A stretch of DNA of 64,000 nt from an uncultured virus (IMG/VR IMGVR_UViG_3300049489_000458) (IMGVR_UViG_3300049489_000458), one strand, 5' to 3'. Shown: positions 1-21,811, counted from the stretch's first letter. The notes: generated from the letters alone by a model not told the origin. Program-made: numbers and translations.

Positions 1-2
1 CT

Positions 3-632
3 TTATTTATTATCCTTATGAATATTCGCACAACCTTTAATAAACCTACCATATTTTTCAATCTCAATATCAGAATATCCTGAAGCTTTACCAATAGTTT
101 TATAATTCTCAAGCCAATGTTCAATAGAATGTTTATGACAACCTATCAGGATTTCATTTAATCCAAAATAGTACGCAGTATGTTTATTGTAAATAAAACT
201 TAAGATTACTTTATTTTCTAGTAACGTTTTCGACAGGTTGGCACCAGACAGGTCGGCACCATACAGGTTGGCACCAGACAGGTTGGCACCAGACAGGTTG
301 GCACCAGACAGGTTGGCACCATACAGGTCGGCACCATACAGGTTGGCACCAGACAGGTCGGCACCATACAGGTTGGCACCATACAGGTTGGCACCAGACA
401 GGTTGGCACCAGACAGGTTGGCACCAGACAGGTCGGCACCATACAGGTTGGCACCATACAGGTCGGCACCATACAGGTTGGCACCATACAGGTTGGCACC
501 ATACAGGTTGGCACCATACAGGTCGGCACCATACAGGTTGGCACCAGACAGGTCGGCACGTTTTCCATTTTCGTCGTTTTGTATCCACAAAACATGTAGT
601 CTTAAATGTTCTTTTAATTCTTGCAATTCCAT
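3..632 (-). CDS. Pentapeptide-repeat protein
   Basis: About 21 tandem A(N/D)L(Y/S)G repeats after an 'ELKEHLRLHVLW...GKRADL' N-terminus; C-terminal 'IGCHKHSIEHW' domain; GGAG RBS upstream. Confidence 0.92.
   Translation of the reverse strand: MELQELKEHLRLHVLWIQNDENGKRADLSGANLYGADLYGANLYGANLYGANLYGADLYGANLYGADLSGANLSGANLSGANLYGANLYGADLSGANLYGADLYGANLSGANLSGANLSGANLYGADLSGANLSKTLLENKVILSFIYNKHTAYYFGLNEILIGCHKHSIEHWLENYKTIGKASGYSDIEIEKYGRFIKGCANIHKDNK
234..558. repeat. 15-bp tandem repeat (CAGGT(T/C)GGCACCA(G/T)A)n encoding the pentapeptide repeats
   Basis: Directly visible tandem array. Confidence 0.97.
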
Positions 633-647
633 TTGTCACTCCTATAT

Positions 648-830
648 TTACTTATCGGTAGTTTTCCTAAAAACTTTAGCCATATTTTGATAATCCCAAT
701 AACCAAATAAAACACAACCTAATATAAAAGGAAACGCTTGCTTACCATATATACCAGTTATAAAATGCTGACCAATAGACAGGATGAAAGACAATATAAT
801 CAATCCTGTAATGTTTATAACGTGTCTCAT
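648..830 (-). CDS. Small membrane protein (2 hydrophobic segments)
   Basis: 60-aa ORF coupled to the upstream gene. Confidence 0.6.
   Translation of the reverse strand: MRHVINITGLIILSFILSIGQHFITGIYGKQAFPFILGCVLFGYWDYQNMAKVFRKTTDK
652..678 (-). promoter_or_regulatory. Sigma-28 (FliA)-type promoter
   Basis: TAAAGTTT-N11-ACCGATAA on minus strand, about 20 nt upstream of the ATG at 632. Confidence 0.85.
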
Positions 831-831
831 T

Positions 832-1110
832 TTAACCCACTACAATATAAAACTTCTTACTAACTTGCAATGCAGTAAGTGTCTCAATATTTAACATACG
901 ATATCCCTTTTCCTTCATATCAAATACAGTAAGAAGGTTATGATCGGCAGGATTATATGCAAGTCCTGTGCCAACAATCGCTTTTGAGACACCTAGTCGG
1001 CAATTCATTTTGCGAATTGTCCCATCTTTCTTAGTAAAGACGGCGGTAAAGACTTTGCCCTTAGTAGACTTAATCAGTTTCAATGCCTTAGTAGAATCAA
1101 TTTGTTTCAT
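832..1110 (-). CDS. Small SH3/Sm-like beta-barrel (WYL_2-like) phage protein
   Basis: 'FTAVFTKKDGTIRKMNC...VFDMKEKGYRM' pattern; AAGGA RBS. Confidence 0.7.
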   Translation of the reverse strand: MKQIDSTKALKLIKSTKGKVFTAVFTKKDGTIRKMNCRLGVSKAIVGTGLAYNPADHNLLTVFDMKEKGYRMLNIETLTALQVSKKFYIVVG

Positions 1111-1137
1111 GTTATTATCCTTTGTTATTATACTTAC

Positions 1138-1164
1138 TTATCGGTTTATTATCAGAAAACTTTA
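1138..1164 (-). promoter_or_regulatory. Sigma-28 (FliA)-type promoter
   Basis: TAAAGTTT-N11-ACCGATAA. Confidence 0.85.
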
Positions 1165-1416
1165 GCTTTTTATCCCTAATTCTTTTTTATTAATATCAAT
1201 TTGTTTTTTAATAATTTTTAAAAATACTTTAGATAATTTTAACTTTTCTTTACGCCATTGATCGATTAAATCCGCATTTAAAGTAACGTGTCTAGGCTTT
1301 TGAATATCCTTCCACTGTAATAAAAACAATTCATTGGTATTTTTTTTCAATAGATTTTCAATCTCATTATATGCAGTAGTTAACTCAATTAGCGACTTCA
1401 ATAGAACAATGTCCAT
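1162..1416 (-). CDS. Hypothetical early protein
   Basis: 84-aa ORF with GAGG RBS. Confidence 0.65.
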   Translation of the reverse strand: MDIVLLKSLIELTTAYNEIENLLKKNTNELFLLQWKDIQKPRHVTLNADLIDQWRKEKLKLSKVFLKIIKKQIDINKKELGIKS

Positions 1417-1429
1417 ATATTACCTCATG

Positions 1430-1471
1430 TGTATCGTTTTGATACACTTCCCCCCGTCTCAAGATGAGAAA
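1430..1471. promoter_or_regulatory. Tandem 17-bp palindromic sites with a CTTCCCCC linker
   Basis: TGTATCGtttTGATACA (1430-1446) and CGTCTCAagaTGAGAAA (1455-1471). Confidence 0.6.
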
Positions 1472-1752
1472 AATTCTTCTTCTAAACGTTCCTCAATGAG
1501 ACGTTGAGCAGTTTTACCAAACGTATCAAAAGGAATCAGTTCATCAGTTTCTTCATTACGAATCTCAATATCGATCACTTCAAAATCGCCTTCAGGCGGA
1601 TAACAGTCTTCAGGTAAACCATATCGTTTACCAGGATCATAATAACCGTCACATTTTGCTACAATATTATATCCGATATCATCAAGATTAATACAGACTT
1701 CAATTGTATTATAATGTCTACTAATCTTAGTTAGTCCTAATGAACGTTTCAT
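1459..1752 (-). CDS. Hypothetical acidic early protein (paralog of 2855..3145)
   Basis: YDPGKRYGLPEDCYPP motif similar to YDKGKPYGPIEFSYPP. Confidence 0.7.
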   Translation of the reverse strand: MKRSLGLTKISRHYNTIEVCINLDDIGYNIVAKCDGYYDPGKRYGLPEDCYPPEGDFEVIDIEIRNEETDELIPFDTFGKTAQRLIEERLEEEFFSS

Positions 1753-1863
1753 TTTGATGCATCCTTTTGCCTTGCTTCATCTTGAAGCAGTTTAAATAGT
1801 TTCACTTCTAATCGTTCTATAAACAATGTAATACGTTTTATATTGTAACGTATCATTTTGAGT

Positions 1864-2541
1864 TTAGCCGACTTTATCCCATTTTGTTTTATCATAATTT
1901 TTAGTCCCGTGATAAATTAATCCGATCTTATTTGAGACACCATTGGCAGCGACCATATCATCATCTGTCCCATCTTGATACCCAGCCGCCTCAAGTTGAG
2001 CCGCTGTCTCAAATACTCGCGCATGATAGTTTGTCTCAATATTAATCAAACTATCCTGTTTTCCACCAAAGGAAAAGATGACTCGAAATGATGCAGGAAT
2101 CATTTTTGTTTTAATATAAGTTTGAAACATAACTACTTGTTTTGTATAGGCATAAAATGATACGCGATCATCTGTAGCAAAATGCGACATAATATCTAAC
2201 CACTTATTAAGATATGTTTCATTATAGAAGTCACCCGCATCATGGATTCTCACTTTGAGATGTTCAGTATTTCTCTTTTTGAGCCACCGATTAATCTCTG
2301 CGATCATATCAGGAACGAACGCATCGGTTTGAGTCAACGCTAACTTAGCTTCATGTGCTACCTTAACGTTACCAAAGGCATACGCGCCTTGACGCGCATA
2401 ACAGCCTACAGCACACAATCCTGCATTAGGACAAGTCTTAAGACCCGTACTACTTTGAAACGCTGGTATAGTCCAATTAACATTAGTAATCCCATTTTTA
2501 GAACTTTTCTTCATTTTACTATTCTGAGTTAACAATTCCAT
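1864..2541 (-). CDS. GP88-like protein (Cys-rich, radical-SAM-like phage family)
   Basis: TCPNAGLCAVGCYA (CxxxxxCxxxC), RIHDAGDF and FYAYTK motifs. Confidence 0.8.
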   Translation of the reverse strand: MELLTQNSKMKKSSKNGITNVNWTIPAFQSSTGLKTCPNAGLCAVGCYARQGAYAFGNVKVAHEAKLALTQTDAFVPDMIAEINRWLKKRNTEHLKVRIHDAGDFYNETYLNKWLDIMSHFATDDRVSFYAYTKQVVMFQTYIKTKMIPASFRVIFSFGGKQDSLINIETNYHARVFETAAQLEAAGYQDGTDDDMVAANGVSNKIGLIYHGTKNYDKTKWDKVG

Positions 2542-2562
2542 GTGTATTCCCCTTATAATAAC

Positions 2563-2589
2563 TTATCGGTTTATTTGTGGAAAACTTTA
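2563..2589 (-). promoter_or_regulatory. Sigma-28 (FliA)-type promoter
   Basis: TAAAGTTT-N11-ACCGATAA, followed by an AAGGGG RBS and the ATG at 2541. Confidence 0.85.
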
Positions 2590-2868
2590 ATATTTTTTTC
2601 GGTATTCTATATGAATCTCAAAACGATACAATCCAAACGCGATAACCCATATTAAATTGGTATTAAAACAATAAACTTTCAAATATTTAAACCCATAACG
2701 ACCACTATAGTGTATAGGAATTGGGCGATAAACTTTAATTAAAAGCCTAATTTTATCTATTAAACTTGCATCTTTAAATGCCTTAGAATGAAACAAACAA
2801 AACTGAGCATTGCTGCATTTTCTACACTGTTTCATAATGAGTCGTTCCCCCGTCTCAATATCGATCAT
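2587..2868 (-). CDS. Hypothetical protein with N-terminal CxxC...CxxH (likely start at MKQCRKC)
   Basis: ORF track; fills the gap in the operon. Confidence 0.5.
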   Translation of the reverse strand: MIDIETGERLIMKQCRKCSNAQFCLFHSKAFKDASLIDKIRLLIKVYRPIPIHYSGRYGFKYLKVYCFNTNLIWVIAFGLYRFEIHIEYRKKY

Positions 2869-3145
2869 CTTTACTATTATACATGTCCCAAAATGAGTCT
2901 TCTAATTCAGCATAGATTCTATTATAGTCACTCTTATTTAACGTACCAATTTGAATCAATTCATTTTTATCTTGAGTATAAATTTTAATATCATCTATAA
3001 ACAATTCACTACTAGGCGGATAACTAAATTCAATCGGTCCATAAGGTTTACCTTTATCATAAGAACCAATAGCCAATGCTGATATATAAACTTCAATATC
3101 AGCACCAATAGTAGTGTTTAATTCTACCTCATATTTTCGTCCCAT
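2855..3145 (-). CDS. Hypothetical acidic early protein (paralog of 1459..1752)
   Basis: Start reassigned to MGRKYEV, directly after the upstream stop. Confidence 0.7.
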   Translation of the reverse strand: MGRKYEVELNTTIGADIEVYISALAIGSYDKGKPYGPIEFSYPPSSELFIDDIKIYTQDKNELIQIGTLNKSDYNRIYAELEDSFWDMYNSKDDRY

Positions 3146-3146
3146 A

Positions 3147-3515
3147 TTAGTACAACCTTTCTTGTACTGCATCATATACATAATTTGAATCATTATTCAA
3201 TTCGTCTAATTCGTCATCGGTCATATCACGACCTTGATAAGTTGCCGATGCAATATAAGCATCAACAAAATCAGGATAATCTTTTGTATCAATACCATCC
3301 ACTTCAACATTCTCAATTTGAGAATAGTCCAGAACAATACGTTCTAGAACGGGACCATGTAACCATACAGAAACTGTCTCTTTAGGAAACGTCTCAAGGC
3401 GAGCCAGCCACCGTTTATATCTGGCCTCTGTCTTAAAACGATACGTTCTACCTTCGGTAAATGTTTTATGAGGAATCATAACTTTAATCCTATACCCTAT
3501 AATTTTGCGCTCCAC
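3147..3515 (-). CDS. Hypothetical phage protein
   Basis: C-terminal 'VDGIDTKDYPDFVDAYI' segment typical of small phage early proteins; GGGAG RBS. Confidence 0.7.
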   Translation of the reverse strand: MERKIIGYRIKVMIPHKTFTEGRTYRFKTEARYKRWLARLETFPKETVSVWLHGPVLERIVLDYSQIENVEVDGIDTKDYPDFVDAYIASATYQGRDMTDDELDELNNDSNYVYDAVQERLY

Positions 3516-3545
3516 AATTAACTCTCCCTGTTAATAAATAAAACT

Positions 3546-3776
3546 TTAGTTAAAACTACCACTAGACAACAGTTTATCTTTACCATCAGGATTTACTTGA
3601 TACAAATAAAGATCGCGACCATATGAATCAGCCCGAGCGTCTTTAAATGGGACAACTTTAATCCCATATTCAGACAATAGAACTACATGATCATCTTGAA
3701 GTTTACTCTCAAAAGTATCCCATATATCAGAACTTAACTTGACCATTGGATTATGTGCATAATACTTCATTTTCAT
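3546..3776 (-). CDS. Hypothetical early protein
   Basis: Directly downstream of a promoter and RBS. Confidence 0.7.
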   Translation of the reverse strand: MKMKYYAHNPMVKLSSDIWDTFESKLQDDHVVLLSEYGIKVVPFKDARADSYGRDLYLYQVNPDGKDKLLSSGSFN

Positions 3777-3793
3777 TTTCCCCTTATACTTAC

Positions 3794-3820
3794 TTATCGG
3801 TTGAATTCTAGAAAACTTTA
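3794..3820 (-). promoter_or_regulatory. Sigma-28 (FliA)-type promoter
   Basis: TAAAGTTT-N11-ACCGATAA. Confidence 0.85.
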
Positions 3821-3821
3821 A

Positions 3822-4334
3822 TTATAATTCTAGTTTTTCAATATATTCTTTTACTGTTTCATATTGAGATCCTAATGCTTTTCTCAATTTGAAATAGTTT
3901 TCAATACATGCATCATAAATAGACTCAGCTTTAATTGAGTCTTCATCATAACCGAATTCAAAACACCAGTCTCGAAATGAGACCTCATGTGCTGAACTAT
4001 CCAAAAAGAGACAATATAATAATTGTTCCAATTTAGGATGCTCAACACCTACGCCACGACGAAGAAATTCATCAACGTCATAATATGAGACGCCTATTGA
4101 TCTAGACGTGGGTTTAATATTCTTATGAATACCACTATTAATCACTTGATCGCGAGTTAATTGCAATATATTACGCTTATCTTTTGGTACGTCTTTGAGA
4201 TCTTTTAAAGTCTTGAGATAACCTAATCCTGTCTTATATTCGAACGATTCATCTCCAATACGACACGACCAACGAATCTCATTAGGATACACTCCCATTA
4301 AAGTAGGCACATAATTAATCTTAAATTGATCCAT
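3822..4334 (-). CDS. Hypothetical phage early protein
   Basis: 'SFRDWCFEFGYDEDSIKAESIYDAC' segment typical of a phage early family; start reassigned to MDQFK. Confidence 0.75.
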   Translation of the reverse strand: MDQFKINYVPTLMGVYPNEIRWSCRIGDESFEYKTGLGYLKTLKDLKDVPKDKRNILQLTRDQVINSGIHKNIKPTSRSIGVSYYDVDEFLRRGVGVEHPKLEQLLYCLFLDSSAHEVSFRDWCFEFGYDEDSIKAESIYDACIENYFKLRKALGSQYETVKEYIEKLEL

Positions 4335-4335
4335 T

Positions 4336-4509
4336 TTACGCCCCCATCTCAATATAACGTGTTGGCTCATTAAACAGCCTAATGAACGCACCATGACGTT
4401 TAATCGCCTCAACCCATACCGTATTGAGTTGAGATTCAGTCGGCGGCCTTAAGAAGTAAGTGTTTTCAAGAACTATATCATTTTGAGCCATAATAGTTAC
4501 TTTATACAT
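4336..4509 (-). CDS. Small hypothetical protein (57 aa, MYKVTIMAQ...), not in the ORF track
   Basis: GAGGTG RBS after a sigma-28 promoter; stop adjacent to the next start. Confidence 0.65.
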   Translation of the reverse strand: MYKVTIMAQNDIVLENTYFLRPPTESQLNTVWVEAIKRHGAFIRLFNEPTRYIEMGA

Positions 4510-4527
4510 TTTTCACCTCATACTGTA

Positions 4528-4555
4528 TTATCGGTTGAAGGCTTATAAAACTTTA
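4528..4555 (-). promoter_or_regulatory. Sigma-28 (FliA)-type promoter (12-bp spacer)
   Basis: TAAAGTTT-N12-ACCGATAA. Confidence 0.75.
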
Positions 4556-4564
4556 GAACTATTT

Positions 4565-4762
4565 TCAAGTCACCTTAACAATCTTACCATCTTTAATAGT
4601 AACATTAGCGTACCATTTACGAACGTATGGTGATGGACCAACGACACAAAATGAGCCATTATCCTTATACTCTTCACCAAACATACTTGTCTCAGTATAA
4701 GACAATGGTTTGCCTACCGATGCTTTAAGATCCTTCTTAGTCTTATAGTTCGCACCTATCAT
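4565..4762 (-). CDS. Small conserved-looking phage early protein
   Basis: 'YKTKKDLKASVG...ETSMFG...RKWYA'; GGGAG RBS. Confidence 0.75.
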   Translation of the reverse strand: MIGANYKTKKDLKASVGKPLSYTETSMFGEEYKDNGSFCVVGPSPYVRKWYANVTIKDGKIVKVT

Positions 4763-4794
4763 AACTTATGCTCCCTGTTATGTGTTATAACTAC

Positions 4795-4821
4795 TTATTG
4801 GTAGATTTTTTAAAAACTTAA
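4795..4821 (-). promoter_or_regulatory. Sigma-28-type promoter (variant)
   Basis: TTAAGTTT-N11-ACCAATAA. Confidence 0.65.
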
Positions 4822-4904
4822 GTAAAAAAACTCATTAAAAATCTTAATCGCCAACTGAATCATAATGAGATTAAAGTAAATCTGAATTCCCAGATTAGAA
4901 CGTC

Positions 4905-5261
4905 TCATTCCCAGCCACCATCATTCCCATATACCGATGTATAATCGGCAACTTGTTCATTACGAAACGTCTCAACTTGATCGTCTCGATCTGGAGCAGC
5001 AGCATCAATATGTTCATTATTATATGCAAATCCTGATGTTTCAAAAATAGATCGAATCTCAGAACGAGTCAATGGAAAGTCCCTGTTTTGAATTGAGATA
5101 GCTAGTTGCTGTGCCTCAGAATCGAATGAAAAACTAGTAGCAATCGACATAATCTCATTATGAAACATATTGAGCTGTCCCATTTCGTGACGAGCGGTAT
5201 TTAATTGGTCCTGCAATGTCTGAATATGAGCCAAAATCGAAACTATAGTCTTACGTTCCAT
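4905..5261 (-). CDS. Hypothetical early protein
   Basis: Start MERKTIV with GGGGG RBS. Confidence 0.7.
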   Translation of the reverse strand: MERKTIVSILAHIQTLQDQLNTARHEMGQLNMFHNEIMSIATSFSFDSEAQQLAISIQNRDFPLTRSEIRSIFETSGFAYNNEHIDAAAPDRDDQVETFRNEQVADYTSVYGNDGGWE

Positions 5262-5336
5262 ATAACCCCCATTATAAAATGTCTGATTAGCGGTCAATCT
5301 TGTCGTGTGCTTATCAGCCGTTGTCCTTATAATAAC

Positions 5337-5363
5337 TTATCGGTGAAAAGTCTGGAAACTTTA
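5337..5363 (-). promoter_or_regulatory. Sigma-28 (FliA)-type promoter
   Basis: TAAAGTTT-N11-ACCGATAA. Confidence 0.85.
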
Positions 5364-5985
5364 GGAAAATCTTTAAAAAAATGATTGTATATTAATGAGA
5401 CATATGTCATAATGAGAATAACAAATATAGTTAGGTCCTGACGACGTATTAGTTCGTCCCATATCAAGGCGTTGCAGGATGAGACATATCAGAATCAATC
5501 GTACTGTAATGGTACGACCCATATCGAGACTAATCCTACTGTGGAACGTCTCAAGGTGAATGGGCTAAAATGTGACATAAGTCGTGACCACCTATTGACT
5601 ATCTCACTCTGATACGTTGGCCTATTGCGAGGCATACGCAACCAGATTAAAGTGTATTAATTCGAGACTAAGACCTCTCTAATGGAATTCTTTGACCTCG
5701 ACTACAACCTTCCTCATTTATTATATAAAAGAGCTTATAATATACTAACTTGAGACATATATATTCTTATATTATATATAAGAAATAATATACTTGTATC
5801 AACATGAGATGTATTAACTCTAACCTAGTTGACGTTATAACATATATAAAAGATCCTGTGAAGTCAACGACTTACACAATTAATCTCAGAATAAGACAAT
5901 AATCCTGAATAAGTTAATAATATAGTGTAATAATAGTATATATGAGATAACTATCATTGTAACTATGTATTAACCTCATACTATC

Positions 5986-6012
5986 TTATCGGTAAAAATA
6001 GCTAATACTTTA
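5986..6012 (-). promoter_or_regulatory. Sigma-28-type promoter with no substantial downstream ORF
   Basis: TAAAGTAT-N11-ACCGATAA. Confidence 0.7.
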
Positions 6013-6135
6013 GTCATTTATACTTATATTAGGCACAAATCTTTCTTATACTTGAGCAATATGACTCAATTCGGTACGGATAATTACCATATATAAAGCT
6101 TATATGTGACATAAGTGCTACTTATATAGTACATT

Positions 6136-6151
6136 TGGCATAATAATTGCA
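6136..6151 (+). promoter_or_regulatory. Sigma-54 -24/-12 motif
   Basis: TGGCATAATAATTGCA (GG-N10-GC). Confidence 0.7.
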
Positions 6152-6181
6152 TATAAATCCTGGATGTATAAGAATATGTTA

Positions 6182-6215
6182 TGGTATACCTATTGCAATG
6201 CATAAACCGTGCCAA
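6182..6215. promoter_or_regulatory. Convergent pair of sigma-54 -24/-12 motifs
   Basis: Plus strand TGGTATACCTATTGCA (6182-6197); minus strand TTGGCACGGTTTATGCA (6199-6215). Confidence 0.7.
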
Positions 6216-6223
6216 CGTTCCTC

Positions 6224-6296
6224 CGTCTCAGCCTGATACGTCTCATTTTGAGACACTTCCTCCGTTGTTTCATTATGATACAGTCAATTTGAGGCA
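6224..6296. promoter_or_regulatory. Array of 17-bp palindromic operator/enhancer-like sites
   Basis: CGTCTCAgccTGATACG, CGTCTCAtttTGAGACA, CTTCCTCCGT linker, TGTTTCAttaTGATACA, ACAGTCAattTGAGGCA. Confidence 0.75.
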
Positions 6297-6297
6297 T

Positions 6298-6328
6298 AAA
6301 AAACCCCATCTCATTGCAAGACAGGGTA
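6298..6328 (-). terminator. Probable intrinsic terminator
   Basis: ACCCTGTCTT-loop-GAGATGGGGT followed by TTTTT on the minus strand, after 6366..6587. Confidence 0.55.
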
Positions 6329-6365
6329 AAACTGGCAGGATTTAGGTGTCTTATAGTGGGACGAA

Positions 6366-6587
6366 CTATGCTACACGTTTTTTAGATTGGAAGTCCACGA
6401 ATAGGACGTTATATCTGACGTTAAATCTCTTTTCAATACGCTTCTTTAGAGCCGATGCCTTAAGTAGCTCTTTGTTCCAATATGAGGCAGATTCATGGTC
6501 GTAGCTACCTTGAGCCACTCTACCACATTGTTTAATACGAGCCATAACTAAAATTAATGCACCATTAACAATCTTATTCATAGTCAA
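6366..6587 (-). CDS. Hypothetical basic protein
   Basis: 73-aa ORF, GAGGAG RBS. Confidence 0.65.
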   Translation of the reverse strand: MTMNKIVNGALILVMARIKQCGRVAQGSYDHESASYWNKELLKASALKKRIEKRFNVRYNVLFVDFQSKKRVA

Positions 6588-6693
6588 ACTCCTCTAGTTC
6601 GGTGTTAGAAACGTCTTGTTCTGAGTCAATTAGATCATCTTGATCCCAGCTAATATCTGCCTCAAGTTGAGCCACAATCTTATTAGGGTCCAT
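6574..6693 (-). CDS. 39-aa highly acidic peptide (MDPNKIVAQLEADISWDQDDLIDSEQDVSNTELEEFDYE), not in the ORF track
   Basis: GGAGGTG RBS; TAATG coupling to the upstream ORF. Confidence 0.65.
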   Translation of the reverse strand: MDPNKIVAQLEADISWDQDDLIDSEQDVSNTELEEFDYE

Positions 6694-6860
6694 TATTCAC
6701 CTCCTATTAAATAATCTGTATATACACAATTTGGCTTTAATTTATAAAACTCATTAACCGCATCATCAAATGCTGATTCGCTATTAAAATCATAATAACA
6801 TGAGCATGATAATTCTTGAGTCGAATTAGGTAATTGGTAGAAAAAGAGTATATGATACAT
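6693..6860 (-). CDS. 55-aa hypothetical protein (MYHILFFYQ...), not in the ORF track
   Basis: AGGAGG RBS after the rightmost sigma-28 promoter. Confidence 0.65.
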   Translation of the reverse strand: MYHILFFYQLPNSTQELSCSCYYDFNSESAFDDAVNEFYKLKPNCVYTDYLIGGE

Positions 6861-6901
6861 TATGCCTCCTATGTTTTAGTTACTATCGCCTTACAATATA
6901 C

Positions 6902-6928
6902 TTATCGGTAGACTGTGAAAAAACTAAA
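6902..6928 (-). promoter_or_regulatory. Sigma-28-type promoter
   Basis: TTTAGTTT-N11-ACCGATAA. Confidence 0.7.
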
Positions 6929-6963
6929 GACATTTGATTTTATAGATGGTATAAGAAAGACTG

Positions 6964-7022
6964 CGTACCAGAATGATACTGTATCAATATGAGACGCTTC
7001 CTCCGTGTATCAGAATGAGGCG
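6964..7022. promoter_or_regulatory. Second array of 17-bp palindromes, same layout as 6224-6282
   Basis: CGTACCAgaaTGATACT, TGTATCAataTGAGACG, CTTCCTCCG linker, TGTATCAgaaTGAGGCG. Confidence 0.75.
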
Positions 7023-7088
7023 TAGTGTAATGATGCGTATGATAGTGAGAATTTCTATTACCAATGTGGTGGCATGACGTTGCATATA

Positions 7089-7137
7089 TGCAGGATGTGT
7101 GCCAGTATCAGATAGATACATGTATCATATTGAGACA
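7089..7137 (-). promoter_or_regulatory. Sigma-54 motif abutting two palindromes
   Basis: CTGGCACACATCCTGCA on the minus strand (7089-7105); AGTATCAgatAGATACA (7104-7120); TGTATCAtatTGAGACA (7121-7137). Confidence 0.7.
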
Positions 7138-7236
7138 CTTCGTGTGCCATGAGGGGTAGGGGGGTGACACCTAAACATATCTGGAAAATGTCTATATACC
7201 ATCCATATATTTTTATGAAATATACATATTAATACA

Positions 7237-7572
7237 CTATAGATTTAACATATTCGATTTAGCATTATTTTCTTCAATAGTTAAATATTGTAAGTTCCAG
7301 GGCACATGTAGTCCACAGAACAAAGGGTGATTCCTAGGAACAATATGATCGACTTCATATCCTTTAGGTCTATTAGCGTAGATTTTAGCTAACTGCCATA
7401 TGTAATACTCGGAAATAGCTGATCCATATTTTTCGATATTTTTCAACCTTCTATTTCTTTTCTTTTTAGCTCTAATCATTCCTGGACGATGTTTACGTTT
7501 ACAATAAAGTTTAGTAGATCTTTTAGATTCAAATTCAATATTGCAATACTTGCATTTTTTAAGATAAGACAT
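7237..7572 (-). CDS. HNH endonuclease
   Basis: 'GYEVDHIVP...GLHVPWNLQYL...N..KSN' plus N-terminal CxxC; start taken at MSYLKKC. Confidence 0.85.
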   Translation of the reverse strand: MSYLKKCKYCNIEFESKRSTKLYCKRKHRPGMIRAKKKRNRRLKNIEKYGSAISEYYIWQLAKIYANRPKGYEVDHIVPRNHPLFCGLHVPWNLQYLTIEENNAKSNMLNL

Positions 7573-7585
7573 ACAACTTATTACA

Positions 7586-10500
7586 CTAGTCTCTATCATG
7601 TCTATCAGGATCTAGTATATCCAGGATATCACTCATTCTCTTATTTAGTTTTGATAGTTCGGCTTCTAGACCTTTAATTCGTTCCTCTGATTGTTCTTGT
7701 GTCCTAGTAAATGCAAGCTTTCCTCCCTGAATAAAATATACCTCACCATCTGGAGCATATGGAGTTGTTTCTTTAATCACTTCGTATTCAGTTGCAGGTG
7801 ACGATATAATTCTAATGATATTCATATATTATTACACTTTCTCTTTCATTAACTTAACATACTCATCAAAAAATTCCGCTTTAGGATAACCACTCATATC
7901 TAATTTATGTTCTTTAGCCATCTGTTCCAATACCTTATATTCCTTATATGAAACATAACGCATGGGAGACTTCATGCCTTTTTCCATTAATTTCTTAGTG
8001 GCCTTAATAAAATCATCTTCATTCATTTAAAACCCATCATTCCAATTCTTCTTATGCTGTTCAATAGAGTATACCAGATTTTCCATCTCTTTAGCCAGGA
8101 TTTTATATTCATCAGTGTATATACTTATTACACTAGACTTAATGGCGTCAGGTCTAGCCGCTACGCTACTCTCAAGTCTCATTAATTTTGCGACCAGTTC
8201 GGATTGTTTGACCCACGCCCTACCATGCAAATCCTGAAGTTTCTCCAAAGGAGACTTAGGTGCAGACTTAAATCCCATTAGATGGGCCAGCGCCAGGGAG
8301 CTTTGCGTTTGGCGCGTTGCTTGCGCCGGTCCGCCAGCCGTTCTTGTTTGGTGGCGACTATATTACGATAATTCACAATCATTAGCCATGTATATAAAAC
8401 AAAAGCTAAGATGAATGAACCTATGATAAAATAGAAATCCTGATCCATATACTTATTACACTATACCTTATCTACTTCCCAACCTTTTGAAAAGACACAA
8501 TCAGTATACGCCTTTTTTCGAAACTCTTCAACTCTCTGTTCACAAAACCAATAACGAAAATTTTCTAGATTCTGATCGTGGTATCCGATTGACGTATTCT
8601 TAACAGATTTACATTTACCCTTCAAAAGCATTTTAAGAGCTTTAGGAAATGTCATTTTAGTTTCTCCATTAGATCTTGTATATCCCATTTGATGACGGTA
8701 TATAGCTCGTCAAACCAGCCAATCACTTTAAACAACGACTGTGGCTCTTTAAACCTCAAAAGGCTTAAAGGGCGGGTAAACCCATAACGGCAGTCCCAAA
8801 GGCCAATGGCGAGGTCATTAGCCTCATCTAATGACATATCATTGTCTGGATGAGATAACCTCCTAGTAACAGATTGCTTACATTCAGGAGAATTGATATA
8901 CTCACGAAGCTCATGGTCAGCTAGATAAACACCTGTATACCGATAGATGAGAGATTTAAGTTTAAGATTCATAGATACACACCGAATAGTATTGTTATTA
9001 CCACCAAAGCCCCAATTACTAAATCAAGAGTAAATTTAAGTTCTTGTAATTCCTTGGATAGCTGCTGCATTGTTGGCTTTGTTTTAGCTTTAGTCTTTGA
9101 CATAATTATTACACTATCCTTTATTTATTGTTAAAGATATCATAGCGGCCTTTGGCACTAGACATTTTAAGTCTATCTCCACTCAGATACATTAAGCCAA
9201 TTGAGGTTAACGACTCGTTAGCTCCAGTACCGCTATAATAAATGTTAATACAAAGCTCGGGACGCCACCAACCGATAGGGCTATTGCTATGGGCATACTT
9301 TGTCCTAACAATCATATAATCTCATGGAGATCCTGAAAAGTCAACGAGTTTCCCATTCGTGATGACACTTAGTACATTTAGCAACTAATATTCCAGGAAA
9401 TGATTTAGCTTTACCAATGATCTGACCTTCACTGTTACACCAAGAACAAACTAAAGGCATACGCCGACAAGTACACTCAGGACAACCACGAGCTACATAC
9501 TCAGCTTCGTCCTTGCCTGACCATTGAGCATCACATGTACAACGATTATTCACGAATCATGTCCTTCTGACAGCCCATCTTCGCCATGCTGAACCCAATC
9601 AATATCTTCATTAGATTCGATTTCATAAGATTCAGGATTTGTCATTTTCTTTTCATATTATGCTTTAGATAATCTTCTTTCATTATCTTAGCGTTTAAAG
9701 AGGAATCGGCATCAAACAAAGTTAATCTAACTAATTCCTGATCAGGTGTGCCAACTGTAATAATACATTTATTCATCTCAAGTTCCATACGAGCAGCAGG
9801 ATCTGAACTATTATCTTTAATCCAGTTCAGTGCCATCTCTAGATCTTCAATTGAGACTCTCATCTACTCTTCTTCTTTTGGTCGCTTAATTTGACTATCA
9901 CGACGCCCATCAACAGTCTTATGACCAACTACTTTAGGAACACATACATAACCCTGACTAACTACCATCTCAGTAACCGTCTCAAACCCTTCAGAAGTAA
10001 TAGGTTCAGAAATCTTAGGATTAGGATTGTTGTGAAGATAAGTCACTTGACGAACCTCGGTAACAACCATACGCTGAGATTCTTGAGGCTGAGAAAGCTT
10101 ACCTGTATCTTGATACCGAAACATTATTTATTCCTTTGTGAAAGTTATTAATACAATCCTCTCATATTCCATATTCGAATACAAGTATTTATATTAGTTT
10201 TAAACAACTTAACCTTATATTCTTCGAACCCTGAACAATCTTCGACTAACTGGCCGATCTCATCCTTATACTGACCATTAAGAATGAGGACATGCTGACC
10301 ATACCAAGAAGGAGTACGAAATGTAGCACATCCAGCGACTACCATCAATAATAATGCTGCACCCGACAACTTAAAGTATATCATACTTTAAATGTTGTCT
10401 AGTAAGAGGAAGAATCACTGTAAAAATTTGCGATGGGTGGTTCATTCTTCTAGAACCTTATCACATTTCTTACAAACAAATTTAGCACGAGTAAATCCAA

Positions 10501-11275
10501 CATTAATGGAAATATGCTCACATTCATCACCTACATATACGGTTTTATATTCAGTAGCAAAACTATTATGTTCAGGATGTTCAACAATAGGACATTGCCC
10601 GGTCGGTAGAGAGGATGACTTTGGATGTATATAACCAAACGCATCTGTATAATAATCACCAGGAAGAGGCGGAAAAGGATTAGGAAATAAAGTTCCTTGA
10701 GTTCCTGATCCATCTGGTGCAGTCGGAGTTGATGCCGTTATTGGACCATTTGCTGGAGAGCTAGAAGTAGAAGTATTTGCTCCGAATAGTTCGAAAAAAT
10801 AGTCTTTATTCATCTTTATCCTCAGTTTGTTTCTTAATAACTTTCTTAGCTTCAATACGTTCAAGTCGATGGGTTTTAGTTTTAGTCCATCGACCAGGAC
10901 GCGCTCCATGATTACGAGAGATAGGTCTACGTCCCCAAAACTCATAACCAGGAGATTTACCTTTCATCTTAGAACGACTCATTACTTTCTTTCAAGAAGA
11001 TCAAATGTCGTATTAGTTGTATCTTCCATTTTCAATAAAGCACGAAGCACTTGGGCTTGTGCAAAATCTAAGGTGATCATTTGTTTAAGCAGATGATCTC
11101 GAAAAACCAATCCATTACCTGTATTTTCTAGCGAATAACCTAGCGTTCCGGGTTGAGTCCAACTCTTGTCTAATTTCGAATAGTTCATATTAATCACAGA
11201 ATCTCGTTTTGTAATATCATATAAACTCATTTCAGAACCGTTAGCCATACCAAGAATCAATAAACTCTTTTTCAT
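7586..11275 (-). other. Cluster of about 18 short, tightly packed hypothetical ORFs, including 8278..8448 and 10806..10967 (missing from the track) and a small lipoprotein (10148..10384)
   Basis: Overlapping start and stop codons, all on the minus strand; 10148..10384 has a VAGC lipobox. Confidence 0.7.
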
Positions 11276-11284
11276 TTTAAACTC

Positions 11285-11785
11285 CTAAAAAGTTATAATA
11301 CCATTATTAACAGAAAATGCACAATGTTGAGAATCTGTAGTATGATAAGAACCGTTATCTATTAACGATAGAAATCTATTACTTCCACTTTCAAAATACA
11401 CTAACAACTCTCCTGTACTTAATTTTAATATGATTTCATCAAATTGTCCAGGATTATCTCCGCATGGATCGATCAACTCGGCAATAGAATCCGTCCCGTT
11501 GCGTCCATCAAGACCAGGGAGACCATCCATTCCATCCTGACCATTAGTTCCGTTTGTAATCAGGACATTTGTTCCGTCTGTGCATAAAATCAGAGCACCG
11601 TTAGATGCCGCTTCAACCGAACAACTTGAACCATTGGTTCCATTAGTTCCAGCTTCGGTCCCGCTGCATCCGATAATATATTGTAAAATAATAATCAATA
11701 AAATATAAAACAGATATATTCGAATTCGATATGGATTATTTGAAAGTGATCGGGACTTAGGTTGATCTATTTTAATCTTATGCAT
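11285..11785 (-). CDS. Collagen-like (GXY) putative lipoprotein
   Basis: Hydrophobic stretch ending IIGC; GTNGTNG and GQDGMDGLPGLDGRNG repeats. Confidence 0.7.
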   Translation of the reverse strand: MHKIKIDQPKSRSLSNNPYRIRIYLFYILLIIILQYIIGCSGTEAGTNGTNGSSCSVEAASNGALILCTDGTNVLITNGTNGQDGMDGLPGLDGRNGTDSIAELIDPCGDNPGQFDEIILKLSTGELLVYFESGSNRFLSLIDNGSYHTTDSQHCAFSVNNGIITF

Positions 11786-12383
11786 GACGATTCTCTTTTT
11801 TGATATGTTTATTAAAAATTGAATTAATGTATTCGGATTTAGTTAAATCCATATCGATATAGTCGCGATAATCTTTATTATCGATAGTTAATACCTTATA
11901 TGTAGGAAAATTACGATTTAGATAGTTTTTGTATGTAAAACTATGAAATACTCTCAAAAACTTAGGTACAATGATTTTGTCAATTTTAGTTCCACCCGAT
12001 GAGAGAACATATAATTGCAGATTAGCATCCTCAACCTTGGTATAAGCGTACACAGTATGTCCTGCCTCTTTAAGAGATGTGTGTAGATTATGTAGAATAT
12101 CAGGATTGGGGTGTACCAGTACAATAGTCTTTCCTGAACTTGAAATAGTTTGAAAGAATGTTAGGGTGTTCTTTTCGTTATCGCGGGTAACGAAAATCGG
12201 TATGGTTAAATCGAATTTTCTAGCTTTCAACCAGATACGAATTACAGTTACGTTTCTCCAGTTATGCTCAAGATCAATACTGCTATAACTTACGAATTGT
12301 TTACCATTAAGATCCAATACAGCTTTCAGCATAATTACCCCTTTGCTTACTTGAAGTATATAATTATTTAAGATAAAAATCAA
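11778..12383 (-). CDS. Protein with a degenerate receiver (CheY-like) domain
   Basis: 'KTIVLVHPNPDILHNLHTSLKEAGHTVYAYTKVEDA...IDKIIV' follows the REC beta1-alpha1-beta2-alpha2-beta3 pattern. Confidence 0.5.
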   Translation of the reverse strand: MIFILNNYILQVSKGVIMLKAVLDLNGKQFVSYSSIDLEHNWRNVTVIRIWLKARKFDLTIPIFVTRDNEKNTLTFFQTISSSGKTIVLVHPNPDILHNLHTSLKEAGHTVYAYTKVEDANLQLYVLSSGGTKIDKIIVPKFLRVFHSFTYKNYLNRNFPTYKVLTIDNKDYRDYIDMDLTKSEYINSIFNKHIKKENRHA

Positions 12384-12619
12384 TTAGTATTTAATTTGAG
12401 TCTCTATTTGAGACACCGCTAATCAGGGTTTGTCTTAAAGAGAGAAGTTCCTCGCTTGTAGAGGCTGAGATTTTAATATCTTTACCATCAATTACAATAG
12501 TAAACCAATATGCAATTGAAGCACCTTTGACATTATGAATAATTGTTCTATCAGGAACTCCAATAAAACTAACTTTAAATACATCAACATAATGATCATT
12601 TAAATTAATTAATCTCATA

Positions 12620-13078
12620 TTATTTTCCTTCCAGAAAGAGTTTTTTTAAAAAATAGTCTCGATCTGCATTAAACCGAAAATCGTCCATCAAATATTCCTG
12701 CATAATCGTTGACTCAGTAGTGTGATCTAAATCTAAATCGCAATGTCCCAATTCGTGAACTAAAAGGATATATTTGCCAGATTCGGATAAAGATTCCCAA
12801 GCGATAGGATCGATTTCGATTAATCTTTGTCCAAAGGTCCAAATTAAACACACTCCGATATATTCGGTTGATGGTTTAAATTTAATGGAAACGGGTTTGA
12901 CCTTCTCTGTATTTAAATATAACAATTTATCAGCTTTATACTGATTCAAATATGAAATAAAACGAGAATCAACGTATACTGGTCCTAACTCTGGAAGATT
13001 CGGTGGAGCACAGGATGATAGTGTTAATGCTAATATTAAACTACTTAGACTTTTTATAAGGTACTGCATCTTTTCCAT
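12620..13078 (-). CDS. Zinc metalloprotease lipoprotein (metzincin-like)
   Basis: LSSC lipobox; HELGHCDLDLDH zinc motif followed by a Met-turn (TIM). Confidence 0.8.
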   Translation of the reverse strand: MEKMQYLIKSLSSLILALTLSSCAPPNLPELGPVYVDSRFISYLNQYKADKLLYLNTEKVKPVSIKFKPSTEYIGVCLIWTFGQRLIEIDPIAWESLSESGKYILLVHELGHCDLDLDHTTESTIMQEYLMDDFRFNADRDYFLKKLFLEGK

Positions 13079-13376
13079 TATGCTCTGCCATTCGTTTCAT
13101 ATTTTCTTGGTGAGAAACTGGTTCGAGATTACTAGCGGTGTCTTTTGTTCGATTACCGTCTTTATGGTCAACTTCTTTCGCCGATCCATGAAACGCTAAA
13201 GATACTAAAGTGTGAACAAACCTAGTATATCGCTTTCCATTTAACCGTAAATCTACTCTCATATACCCATCTTTATCGGTCCGAGGTGATAAGGTTTCAC
13301 CATTAGGCCCACGAACCACGCCTTGATCGCTAACTGTGTACCCAGGAAATCCAGGGATAGATTTTACTTCACTCAT
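13041..13376 (-). CDS. NUMOD4-HNH homing endonuclease
   Basis: 'IPGFPGYTVSDQGVVR' and 'VHTLVSLAF...VDHKDGNRTKD..SNLEPVS..EN'. Confidence 0.85.
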   Translation of the reverse strand: MSEVKSIPGFPGYTVSDQGVVRGPNGETLSPRTDKDGYMRVDLRLNGKRYTRFVHTLVSLAFHGSAKEVDHKDGNRTKDTASNLEPVSHQENMKRMAEHNGKDAVPYKKSK

Positions 13377-14855
13377 TTATCAATTCCAATCCGACTTAAC
13401 TCCTGGTTGACCGATTTTCGAACAACAAACGTGTCAACTTTAAGCCGAGTTTCAATATGTGGTGCCATTTTATCTGCAAGTTCCTCCTCTGTATATATAG
13501 CAATAACCTCATTAGTATTAGCATTAATAATAAGCCAAACAAATTTCATAACATTCTCCATAATTTAGTTTGATTTCCAATAATTCCAGTGTGGACCTTT
13601 TGAATAGATAAAAGTTGATCGGAATTGAAATACACAGGATCTCCTTCTTTTAACTGGAGTGGTATAAAATTGTGATGATATTCAATCAAATTAATAAGCT
13701 CTACGGTAGTCAGAATATTACTCTGAATAAAATATTCTTTTTGATCCAAAAATACCAGTCGATAATAATTTAATTCCATGTCTTTTTTTCCTCTTCTTCC
13801 ATCTGATCGGCATATTCTTCCATTGTCATAAGCTTAATTTTACCCTTAGCTATGGCATTTTGCAATTGTTTTGTTTGGTATCTTTTCTTTAAAGTCCAAA
13901 CCAAAACCACAAGTAACTCATAACAAAGAGATGATACTAGAAAATAGAGAAAAAATGTTAAAAAGCTCATATATTCCTTAATGCATATCAGGATCAGCGG
14001 TTTGTCCGGCTGCATATACTGTGTATTTATCACTCTCTTCAATCTGAGACAGAACTTCTTCGACATATTGTAATTTACCAACGACTAGTCCTACGATAGT
14101 ATCTTCAGAATCATCCATAGCAATACACCATCCTAATCGACTACAGGCTTCTTGAATTTCGTTAACTAGATCTTCTGGTGTTTTTTTCATTTTAATACCT
14201 CTATTTAGATAGTATCATGGCTGTTTAATACTGTCAACAATAATCCAACACTCACTAGAAATGAAGAAAACTGTAATAGAAATAATGAAAATTCTGACGC
14301 AATCACAGAAATACAAAGAAAAATAGCAGAAATGAGATAAGTCATATATTTATTCATCGTCTTTCCCTTTATTAAAAAATAACACATGTACGATTCTACA
14401 TTTATCTAAAGTTCCACCAAAGGGATTTAATAGATTGTCATAGGTAAGGATCATCTATTCTCCCGTATTAGTTTTCATAATATCTATAACTTCAAGTAAT
14501 GCGTCGATTTTTTCTTCTTTATTCAATCGTCTAAAGAATACCGTTGACATGGTTTGATAAAGTTCGAATCTATCAGTTAAAACGTCCATTCGAAACTCAC
14601 CTTCTGATCCCGAACAATTTTGATCATTCCCGTTATCCATCCACCGTACTCTTTAACTTTCTTAGGGACATATTTTTTTTCTAAATCTTGAGCTATTTTA
14701 TCTGTCCCTGTTTGCAGATAAGTAGCTTTAACTAGGGCATTATAAGCGTCGTGGGTTTTCGAAGCTGGACTTCTTGTTGTACTGATATTAATAGCTGTCG
14801 CTAATACAAAGATACCCAACATCCCCATTCTATCTTCCTTTTTGTCGTAACGCAA
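13373..14855 (-). other. Cluster of short hypothetical ORFs, several hydrophobic
   Basis: Seven ORFs of 60-103 aa with coupled starts and stops. Confidence 0.6.
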
Positions 14856-15492
14856 TCTGTTTTAATAGTTCTCCAGTAAAAAGAGCAGCAGCCTGAGAAC
14901 TGCCACTTAATGTTTTCCCAAAGGCTGTTCGATTTTGACCATTAAATGTCATATCCACAATTTTGCCGTAATTTGATGAAAAATGAGAACTACCTATTAC
15001 ATAAATCCTATTATCATAACATGCTGGGAAATATTGGCAGTTTTGATCAAGATTATCTGAATTATTGCCTGAAGCAAAAACTAATGTAACTTTTTCTTTA
15101 AGTAGAATATTAACAATTTTTCGTTCTTTCTCATCAGACCCTGATCCTCCACTACTTAAATTGATAATATTAACACCAATGGATTGAGCGTATTCTAATG
15201 CGGCTGTGATATATTGTCGTTTGTGCCATTGAGTTGCATATGCTTTAATCAGAACAATACAATAATTCGAATTTTGAGCAGAATTAACAATTAATCCTGT
15301 AACATTAGTACCATGTCCATGATAGTCATATAATCCTTCTCCGCTAAAATCCTTATGTCCCGATTGACATAAAGGTATAAATTTTAGATAGGAAGGATCG
15401 ATTCCTGTGTCGATAACCGCAACTTTAATCATAGTAGACGCTAAGATATTGAAACTAAAGGTAATTAATATAAAATATATTAATTTTTGCAT
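14830..15492 (-). CDS. Secreted subtilisin-like (S8) serine protease
   Basis: Signal peptide; VAVIDTG, HGHGTNV, ASGN, GSSQAA motifs. Confidence 0.9.
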   Translation of the reverse strand: MQKLIYFILITFSFNILASTMIKVAVIDTGIDPSYLKFIPLCQSGHKDFSGEGLYDYHGHGTNVTGLIVNSAQNSNYCIVLIKAYATQWHKRQYITAALEYAQSIGVNIINLSSGGSGSDEKERKIVNILLKEKVTLVFASGNNSDNLDQNCQYFPACYDNRIYVIGSSHFSSNYGKIVDMTFNGQNRTAFGKTLSGSSQAAALFTGELLKQIALRQKGR

Positions 15493-15512
15493 ATGGGTAT
15501 CTCCTAGATTGT

Positions 15513-15541
15513 ATAATAACTCAGAAAATAGATATTGTCAA
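15513..15541 (-). promoter_or_regulatory. Sigma-70 promoter
   Basis: TTGACA-N17-TATTAT upstream of the AGGAG RBS of the S8 protease. Confidence 0.75.
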
Positions 15542-15544
15542 TAT

Positions 15545-15557
15545 GTTAACAAATATA
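15545..15557 (+). promoter_or_regulatory. Putative late promoter GTTAACAAATATA (1 of 6)
   Basis: Identical 13-mer at the start of the packaging operon. Confidence 0.7.
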
Positions 15558-15708
15558 ATTAAGGATTCGTAAAGGTAAGAAGCACTGTCCTTTTTAGGAC
15601 TATTAGCGCAAGCAACTATGCTGTTACACCGATACCTATCTGATTTTTTACCCCAAATGGGATAAAAAGAAAATACCCCACAAAAGCGGGTAAAAAAAAG
15701 GATGTTAT

Positions 15709-15984
15709 ATGTTAGAGAAACTAAGATCTCTTCAAATTAATTTTGCCCTTGTTGCATTTGTCTGTTTCACTTTCAAGGTTCTTATATTTAGTGCGTCTAT
15801 GCCAGAAAGTATAATACTTTTAGGACTAGGTAGCCTCTATGGTTATACCCAATATCTAAAACGATTTCAGCCATATAAACTCGATGATGCCGTTATGCGA
15901 GATCTTATGGAAATGAAAAGTGCATTGACCAAACTCAATATGATTCGAGCAACTGAGAAAATGCAAGATAAGAAATATTTTTAA
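15709..15984 (+). CDS. Small membrane protein
   Basis: Two hydrophobic segments; AAGGA RBS. Confidence 0.7.
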   Translation: MLEKLRSLQINFALVAFVCFTFKVLIFSASMPESIILLGLGSLYGYTQYLKRFQPYKLDDAVMRDLMEMKSALTKLNMIRATEKMQDKKYF

Positions 15985-15993
15985 GGTTTATCT

Positions 15994-16434
15994 ATGGCCG
16001 ATAAATCTTTAATTTTATTACAACAAGAAAATCTTGAACTTAAAAAAGAAAATCAAGGATTACAGGAGACTGTAACTAAATTAATTGAAGAACTTAATCG
16101 ACTTCAAGGAATTGAACGAAGGCCAATTGTTACGACTAATGCCGACAAAATTGTTCGTAGTATTGAAGAAGAAATTATTGAAGAACAAATTAAAAGATTG
16201 GATATGGTATCTAGAGGCCAAACTCTTTCATTAGAAGAAGTTAGAGCTTTAGATTTACTTATTAAGAATAAAAAACTGATAGATATCAATAAGGTGATTG
16301 AGCCCGATTACACAAAGATTCCAGAAGGACAGACCGAATTGGATCTTTTACAATTAGCAGGAAATGATGAACCAGAGGCCGATACAAAAAGTAAGCCCAG
16401 AACAAAGACAAGCCAGAAAAATACTCTGGCATAA
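15994..16434 (+). CDS. Probable terminase small subunit
   Basis: Position immediately upstream of TerL; coiled-coil; no diagnostic motif. Confidence 0.45.
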   Translation: MADKSLILLQQENLELKKENQGLQETVTKLIEELNRLQGIERRPIVTTNADKIVRSIEEEIIEEQIKRLDMVSRGQTLSLEEVRALDLLIKNKKLIDINKVIEPDYTKIPEGQTELDLLQLAGNDEPEADTKSKPRTKTSQKNTLA

Positions 16435-18949: not shown

Positions 18950-18967
18950 CAACACTTTAAGGTCTCC

Positions 18968-18980
18968 GTTAACAAATATA
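18968..18980 (+). promoter_or_regulatory. Putative late promoter GTTAACAAATATA (2 of 6)
   Basis: Intergenic, upstream of the portal gene. Confidence 0.7.
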
Positions 18981-21805: not shown

Positions 21806-21811
21806 GAATAG

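Follow-up and report, generated by a model that had tools for sequence, protein, structure and literature searches.

What reads a row of nearly identical, flagellar-type promoter sequences in the genome of a lytic phage? The question is raised by a 64,000-nucleotide stretch of an uncultured virus (IMG/VR IMGVR_UViG_3300049489_000458), called the window here in its full length, in which the segment 652-6928 holds nine copies of the bipartite sequence TAAAGTTT-N11-ACCGATAA. In textbook lytic phages, infection starts from sigma-70 promoters or relies on a polymerase or sigma factor that the phage itself supplies. Our analysis provides good support for assigning the nine copies, as a sequence class, to the promoters of the flagellar sigma factor sigma-28 (FliA). 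It is also probable, judging from sequence, that they are working promoters and that a FliA-type sigma factor of the host reads them.

The pattern was searched on both strands of the window at <=3 mismatches, and the chance expectation was taken from 100 shuffles. Twelve matches were found versus 1.58 expected, with a shuffle maximum of 5. Nine of the twelve form the array, every one of them on the minus strand; these are the nine co-oriented copies of the preliminary description, re-found at the same positions (P1 to P9 in Table 1) and, as it had said, exact in five cases (P1-P4 and P7). Outside the array the window contains just three weak matches, at 2672(+), 59487(+) and 11851(-). In a second count the first base of the -10 box was left free and the background consisted of 60 first-order Markov simulations. 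This gave 5, 6 and 10 sites at <=0, <=1 and <=2 mismatches versus simulated means of 0.00, 0.00 and 0.55. The spacer is N11 in eight of the nine sites and N12 in P5, which has three mismatches when read at N11 and two exact boxes when read at N12. With P5 taken at N12, the -35 box TAAAGTTT is exact in 6/9 sites and carries one mismatch in the other three. The -10 box reads CCGATAA in eight sites and CCAATAA in P6, preceded by an A as its first base in all nine. The E. coli sigma-28 consensus is given as TAAAGTTT-n11-GCCGATAA in the accessible part of its source (PMC2859248), and 15 of 16 positions are the same in the window. The likeness to the FliA consensus noted earlier holds for this enterobacterial consensus.

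The surroundings of the boxes are those of promoters. All genes in 1-15492 lie on the minus strand, hence all nine sites are co-oriented with the genes. Eight of the nine stand shortly ahead of a Shine-Dalgarno (SD) sequence and a start codon, in agreement with the preliminary description; the distance past ACCGATAA is 18-42 nucleotides (nt) in seven and ~75 nt in P7. Behind P8 there is no SD-led open reading frame (ORF) for ~345 nt. In minus-strand reading, a conserved stretch that resembles GTAAGTATAAGG comes after ACCGATAA, and each -35 box is preceded by a tract that is A-rich and UP-like, plus a C. The extended motif is an A-rich tract followed by C-TAAAGTTT-N11-nCCGATAAGT-a-TATAAG, and the consensus over eight sites is ...aaA.AtAT.aC-TAAAGTTTT-...-ACCGATAAGTaA.TATAAggg. 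The motif is bipartite and its spacer sequence is unconserved. We also looked for a terminator joined to each promoter, and a hairpin with a T run was found just upstream of only one of the nine sites (P6). The bipartite motif, free spacer, co-orientation, SD and ATG that follow, UP-like tract and retention in sister phages together make the sites look like real sigma-28-type promoters. Transcription would be expected to start a few bases into the conserved GTAAGTATAAGG.

Retention in sister phages was assessed by scanning whole records at <=2 mismatches, with the reversed pattern as control. The family of the window also includes the IMG/VR contigs G001-G005 and G007, which have 23-39 proteins in common with the window. 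G002 has three sites in the corresponding region, with GCCGATAA or TCCGATAA as the -10 box (first base G or T). G007, in which the parts of the genome follow the same order as in the window, has seven sites at 1337-9175. The motif has kept its place within the same genome arm in both sisters, although the genes behind it differ. The sigma-28-type units of G007 hold two SAM lyases (1402-1785 and 8738-9151, each directly behind a site), an amidoligase with a glutamine amidotransferase, and a collagen-like protein; SAM lyase is an early anti-restriction function. When the 19 ORFs called between 3 and 7121 in the window were compared with 12 other genomes, homologues turned up for only two, so that the array ORFs are mostly unique.

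The same promoter also occurs in phages that are not relatives of the window. A scan of IMG/VR with the core motif gave mostly single, scattered sites among the matches listed, and a scan with the extended motif gave 10 stretches in 7 contigs. At <=2 mismatches, the number of sites per record is 4 in G006, 7 in G007, 3 in G008, 9 in G009, 7 in G010, 6 in G011, 3 in G012, 16 in G013, 9 in G014 and 7 in G015; with the reversed pattern, most records had 0-2 matches on each strand, and the total for a record was 0-3. Judged by the proteins they share, three groups (G010/G011, G012/G006 and G015) have no relationship to the family of the window. The extended motif is therefore present in at least four phage groups with few or no common genes. 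Sites found with the core motif only still give ...C-TAAAGTTT-N11-nCCGATAAGT.aaT.taA (21 sites). What these groups share with the window is an S8 subtilase, a tail-fibre domain, the 11285-11785 protein and the C-terminal part of 3147-3515 (59-64% identity), and in G010/G011 these genes stand in sigma-28-type units. The promoter type can be swapped: the S8 subtilase gene follows a sigma-28-type site in G010/G011 and a sigma-70-type site in the window. The homologue of 11285-11785 likewise follows a sigma-28-type site in G010/G011, with no clear site in the window, where a possible degenerate tenth copy (11851-11877) lies 66 nt ahead of the gene. Homologues of the S8 subtilase are located at 44265-45005 in G010, 2790-3506 in G011, 25182-25811 in G012 and 6067-6720 in G006.

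Which factor could read the sites in all these phages? No sigma factor or RNA polymerase was found among the window ORFs with Pfam, PHROGs and NCBIfam. The Sigma70_r2 profile had no match in G001-G005, G007 and G009-G012, and the Sigma70_r4, Sigma70_r4_2 and FliA_WhiG models found nothing in G002 or G007. Among the non-structural ORFs of G002 and G007, Pfam detected no sigma factor or polymerase, only enzymes of replication and nucleotide metabolism. Apart from HNH nucleases and small unknowns, no protein is common to the window, G002 and G007 and missing from G001, G003, G004 and G005. Promoters of a phage RNA polymerase are not indicated either: no polymerase domain was seen in the window, G002 or G007, and the motif is bipartite rather than one continuous block. 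The unrelated motif-bearing groups have no candidate sigma gene in common, which makes a FliA-type sigma of the host the most likely reader, and for an extended consensus in four unrelated groups a common host factor is a simpler explanation than four hidden phage sigmas. In the mechanism that we propose, host core polymerase carrying the host FliA-type sigma would read the array, since the phage appears to encode no such factor. In the variable region of this lytic phage the sites, as promoters of the sigma-28 (FliA/SigD/WhiG) class, would drive accessory genes in eight or more short transcription units and, in addition, what is probably a non-coding RNA; the sigma-70-type promoters that head other operons would use the housekeeping sigma. 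Expression of the accessory genes would depend on the level of free sigma-28 in the infected cell. In a host from Bdellovibrionota, the phylum of Bdellovibrio with its extensive non-flagellar sigma-28 programme, the array promoters would be expected to be no weaker and no later than housekeeping promoters.

The array has a defined place in the phage. The window represents ~64 kb of a roughly 80-kb tailed phage and encodes a large terminase, a P22/SU10-type portal, a major capsid protein, tail fibres, ThyX, dUTPase and many HNH nucleases; alignment with G002 and G007 indicates that ~16 kb of replication genes fall outside it. Its leftward arm begins with a sigma-70-type promoter 21 nt ahead of the first gene, that of the S8 subtilase (14830-15492, minus strand), and continues with ~8 kb of motif-free genes, the array and then, by synteny, the replication genes. 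Further sigma-70-type sites stand at operon heads at 41209-41237 (12/12), 33694 and 62781. The first of these, on the plus strand, is a perfect TTGACA-17-TATAAT within the tail module, 21 nt ahead of gene 41258-41671. The presence of sigma-70-type sites at operon heads in addition to the array suggests that the phage uses two promoter classes and that transcription of the leftward arm does not begin with the array. The earlier designation of the segment as an early region is thus half right. Accessory or early-type genes fit it, as the SAM lyases of G007 illustrate; the mid-arm position behind a sigma-70-type head and ~8 kb of other genes does not.

The preliminary description suggested a predator such as Bdellovibrio or Bacteriovorax as the host. 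An isolate phage, prophages and a motif-bearing metagenome-assembled genome (MAG) support the phylum Bdellovibrionota, which we regard, on balance, as the home of the host; a predatory host in particular is not supported and is considerably less probable than the phylum. The best isolate match of both the portal and the capsid protein is a phage of Silvanigrella aquatica (28-30% identity), and Silvanigrella belongs to Bdellovibrionota. When the window portal was compared with 401 Bdellovibrionota genomes, two had homologues with 41-51% identity. Both homologues belong to prophages in chromosomal contigs. One prophage is on a 91-kb contig beside tRNA synthetase, SMC, PPDK and chemotaxis genes; the other is located 2.67 Mb into a contig of 3.65 Mb. 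In each of them, terminase, capsid and tail genes of the window's family are present. In 185,579 species genomes the extended motif was found at one locus, in a Bdellovibrionales MAG (G016), whose chromosomal site is 87% identical to 3776-3821 of the window (46 nt, spanning P4). This site stands ahead of a short hairpin-ended stretch, not a gene. Other sigma-28-type sites of the MAG lie ~10 nt ahead of the start codons of pentapeptide-repeat proteins with signal peptides, a spacing that suggests near-leaderless mRNAs. Further sites there precede short hairpin-ended elements that resemble small RNAs. FliA was above the curated cut-off in all five Bdellovibrionota genomes checked. In the ESM Atlas the portal protein falls in virus clusters only, and DNA of the array region is present in freshwater sediment and aquatic metagenome runs; of the five sequencing runs listed, none is recorded as RNA.

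Several other matches were rejected as host evidence. Many ~33-nt matches to 31286-31320 in Bdellovibrionota genomes reflect a common terminator hairpin, which in the window is bidirectional and has the capsid gene on one side and the convergent gene 31315-31728 on the other. Matches in 37.4-40.7 kb reflect a repeat of ~50 amino acids in the tail-fibre genes 36990-38507 and 40077-41207 (plus strand). At 55-74% identity, several Bdellovibrionota genomes have this repeat in tandem arrays, and it recurs in two unrelated phages, G010 and G015. Phage isolates match the G011 and G012 terminases at only ~24% identity, which is uninformative on the host, and the single partial match of the G011 terminase in the 401 Bdellovibrionota genomes (42%) is too weak for use.

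A number of observations weigh against a host FliA-type sigma acting in a Bdellovibrionota host. The motif is absent from the family members G001, G003, G004 (rated complete) and G005; G001 has sigma-70-type sites at the arm head and within the variable region. Nor does the motif occur in the partial Silvanigrella phage genome (2 matches at 3 mismatches versus 3.86 expected), and neither prophage carries a promoter array. No full-length CRISPR-spacer-like match was obtained for 16001-36000, 36001-56000 and 600-16000 in 401, 401 and 341 Bdellovibrionota genomes, respectively. The host is not proven, because the prophage and spacer searches covered Bdellovibrionota only. In addition, the ~16 kb of the phage beyond the window was judged by proxy from G002 and G007, and profile searches can miss very divergent phage sigmas. 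Candidates for such a factor exist in other motif-bearing records: G008 encodes a sigma-like ORF of 187 amino acids whose score passes the cut-off, Sigma70_r2 matches weakly in G013 and G014, and G010 and G011 encode region-4-like helix-turn-helix proteins of 78-84 amino acids. These proteins are consistent with an alternative in which the sites are read by a phage sigma that the profiles miss because of its divergence or that is encoded in the unseen ~16 kb, and the array forms a middle class switched on by the first, sigma-70-driven genes. The position of the array downstream of ~8 kb of sigma-70-led genes would also fit, as in the cascades of SPO1 and T4. We regard this alternative as unlikely, since four profiles are without match in G002 and G007, Pfam, PHROGs and NCBIfam are without match in the window, no gene distribution tracks the motif, and a phage sigma would have to copy the specificity of the host sigma-28 exactly in four unrelated groups.

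It is also conceivable that a different sigma of the host, similar in specificity (a second group-3 sigma, for instance), is the reader, which would make expression independent of motility or attack phase. Each Bdellovibrionota genome checked has 3-5 FliA_WhiG matches, one of them over the cut-off; the extended element CCGATAAGT...TATAAG is outside the enterobacterial consensus; and the sites in the MAG drive secreted pentapeptide-repeat proteins, not flagellin. However, boxes and spacer alike are those of the FliA consensus. In Bdellovibrio bacteriovorus, TTAAG-N16-CCGATA is reported for 92 of 140 attack-phase promoters in the accessible text of PMC3627812, which assigns this same motif to FliA, and we consider a second host sigma quite improbable. 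The corresponding form in the window is TAAAG-N15-CCGATA in eight sites and N16 in one. The printed Bdellovibrio spacing is one base longer than the N15 of the window, a further point against our reading; the Bdellovibrio consensus may not be that of the host. Finally, the repeats could be mainly sites of recombination or of a regulatory protein, their likeness to promoters being incidental. The units flank ORFans in a hypervariable region, unrelated phages have homologous genes in such units, and the arrangement resembles the T4-type PeSL cassettes as outlined in the accessible text of PMC2839356 and PMC4122927. The free 11-nt spacer, the fixed distance to SD and ATG, the strict co-orientation and the identity to a sigma consensus are all predictions for promoters, and any involvement in shuffling would come on top of promoter function rather than in its place; an exclusive role of this kind is very unlikely. 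For the idea of cassette shuffling itself, the hypervariable ORFans and the homologous genes in units of unrelated phages provide circumstantial support. Reading of the array by a host FliA-type sigma is the explanation that we prefer.

Table 1. Sigma-28-type sites (P1-P9), the units behind them and related features of the window
Feature	Position	Strand	Remark
P9, TTTAGTTT-N11-ACCGATAA, 2 mismatches	6902..6928	-	GGAGG + ATG 41 nt downstream
Genes of the P9 unit	6693-6860, 6574-6693, 6366-6587	-	
Intrinsic-terminator-like hairpin, 11 pairs then TTTTTAT	6303..6327	-	would close the P9 unit
P8, TAAAGTAT-N11-ACCGATAA, 1 mismatch	5986..6012	-	without SD-led ORF behind
Stretch behind P8, candidate structured RNA, no convincing ORF	5364..5985	-	folding energy
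P7, exact	5337..5363	-	~70-nt leader ahead of gene 4905-5297
P6, TTAAGTTT-N11-ACCAATAA, 2 mismatches	4795..4821	-	ahead of gene 4565-4762 (65 amino acids, phrog_37117)
P5, boxes exact, N12	4528..4555	-	ahead of genes 4336-4509, 3822-4412
P4, exact	3794..3820	-	ahead of genes 3546-3776, 3147-3515, 2855-3193, 2587-2868
P3, exact	2563..2589	-	ahead of genes 1864-2541 (GP88 family), 1749-1895, 1459-1752, 1162-1416
P2, exact	1138..1164	-	ahead of genes 832-1110 (WYL_2 fold), 648-830
P1, exact	652..678	-	ahead of gene 3-632 (pentapeptide-repeat protein, 209 amino acids)
Possible degenerate tenth site, TAAAGATT-N11-ATCGATAT, 3 mismatches	11851..11877	-	weak, left out of count
Sigma-70-type promoter TTGACA-17-TATTAT (11/12)	15513..15541	-	heads leftward arm
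First ~8 kb of leftward arm: small genes, HNH nucleases	7237..15492	-	no sigma-28-type site at <=2 mismatches

Apart from the families named in Table 1, the genes in the array units encode small proteins of unknown function according to Pfam, PHROGs and NCBIfam. The stretch between P8 and P7 has a minimum free energy of -153 kcal/mol (z = -3.0 versus 20 shuffles) and may be a phage non-coding RNA of ~600 nt, as this folding energy suggests. No Rfam family was found for it; there was none at E <= 1 in 4800-7400 and none at the gathering threshold window-wide. A 26-nt element containing the palindrome GTMTCA-N3-TGAGAC beside GGAGG occurs three times (6240-6265, 6981-7006 and 7122-7147); the copies may act as operators or mark where small paralogous ORFs start. 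Inside the pentapeptide-repeat gene behind P1, ~21 near-perfect 15-nt tandem repeats occupy 240-560. The sister G002 starts with 18-nt repeats at the corresponding place, and both contigs may therefore break at a repeat.

Other features lie outside the array. The large terminase gene (16364-18949, plus strand; 861 amino acids) contains an intein (Intein_splicing, Hint) at residues 434-807, after the Terminase_6N part. At least six homing nucleases of the HNH or endonuclease-VII type are encoded at 7237-7599(-), 13041-13376(-), 24862-25713(+), 33770-34444(+), 60748-61086(-) and 61370-62413(-), and one homing nuclease is fused to the N-terminus of dUTPase. ARAGORN found no tRNA in the window. 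Megablast of 1-8000 against 50,697 phage records returned nothing, and the window has no near match among these records.

An array that depends on an alternative sigma of the host would tie expression of the phage genes to the state of the host, either motility or, in Bdellovibrionota, the attack phase. Such state-dependence would affect the practical host range and the outcome of infection. As a sequence signature, the array could also be of use in host assignment for uncultured phages, and the promoter consensus is short, exact and easily tested. To our knowledge, tailed phages of Bdellovibrionota are hardly known. If the link to this phylum is true, the window's family would offer a first view of gene regulation in them. 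Taken jointly, the observations allow a wider and more speculative reading, which we find possible but doubtful: unrelated lineages of lytic Bdellovibrionota phages would each have wired early, anti-defence and accessory genes to the host sigma-28, the flagellar-type promoter would be the true 'early promoter' of the phylum, and the extended promoter would be a common junction for swapping cassettes. Within this proposal, the flagellar-type promoter would serve as the early promoter because only the attack-phase cell of a predator, which is mostly run by sigma-28, meets phages.

A full-text literature search found no published description of sigma-28 promoter arrays in phage genomes, and several known systems share parts of the arrangement. 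Phage sigma cascades, such as those of SPO1 (gp28 and gp33/34), T4 (gp55) and phiEco32 (gp36), depend on a self-encoded sigma with a phage-specific consensus. As in these cascades, a second promoter class that is not of the sigma-70 type would control a block of phage genes in the window; unlike in them, no such sigma gene was found here and the consensus would be that of the host. PeSLs join a sigma-70 early promoter to a stem-loop. In these T4-type cassettes, as the available text describes them (PMC2839356; PMC4122927), novel ORFs of a hyperplastic region are bordered by a repeated promoter and exchange from phage to phage is indicated, much as here. The window differs from PeSLs in that its promoter is sigma-28-type and a hairpin with a T run is found upstream of only one of the nine sites.

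The remaining parallels are with sigma-28 systems of bacteria and prophages. The class 3 flagellar promoters of E. coli and Salmonella, so far as the accessible text goes, have the same -35 box and the same 11-nt spacer (PMC2859248). The -10 box differs from theirs in the first base only, which is A in the window and G or T in G002, and the downstream GT-a-TATAAG and the upstream A-tract are outside the enterobacterial consensus. Unlike class 3 promoters, the sites form an array of nine in a lytic phage and serve non-flagellar accessory genes. A phage-borne gene under a host sigma-28 promoter has a precedent in the prophage flagellin gene fliC_P, described in the accessible part of the preprint as expressed through the FliA programme of the host (bioRxiv 10.1101/2023.11.30.569447). 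As presented there, fliC_P is a single flagellar gene of lysogenic conversion in temperate enterobacterial phages, whereas the array of the window spans many unrelated accessory genes in a lytic phage. The attack-phase promoters of Bdellovibrio, in the available text, belong to chromosomal genes of the predator, with no phage involved (PMC3627812). They nevertheless resemble the array in the large-scale use of a sigma-28-type motif for non-flagellar genes, there also for small RNAs, and they do so in what is probably the same host phylum.

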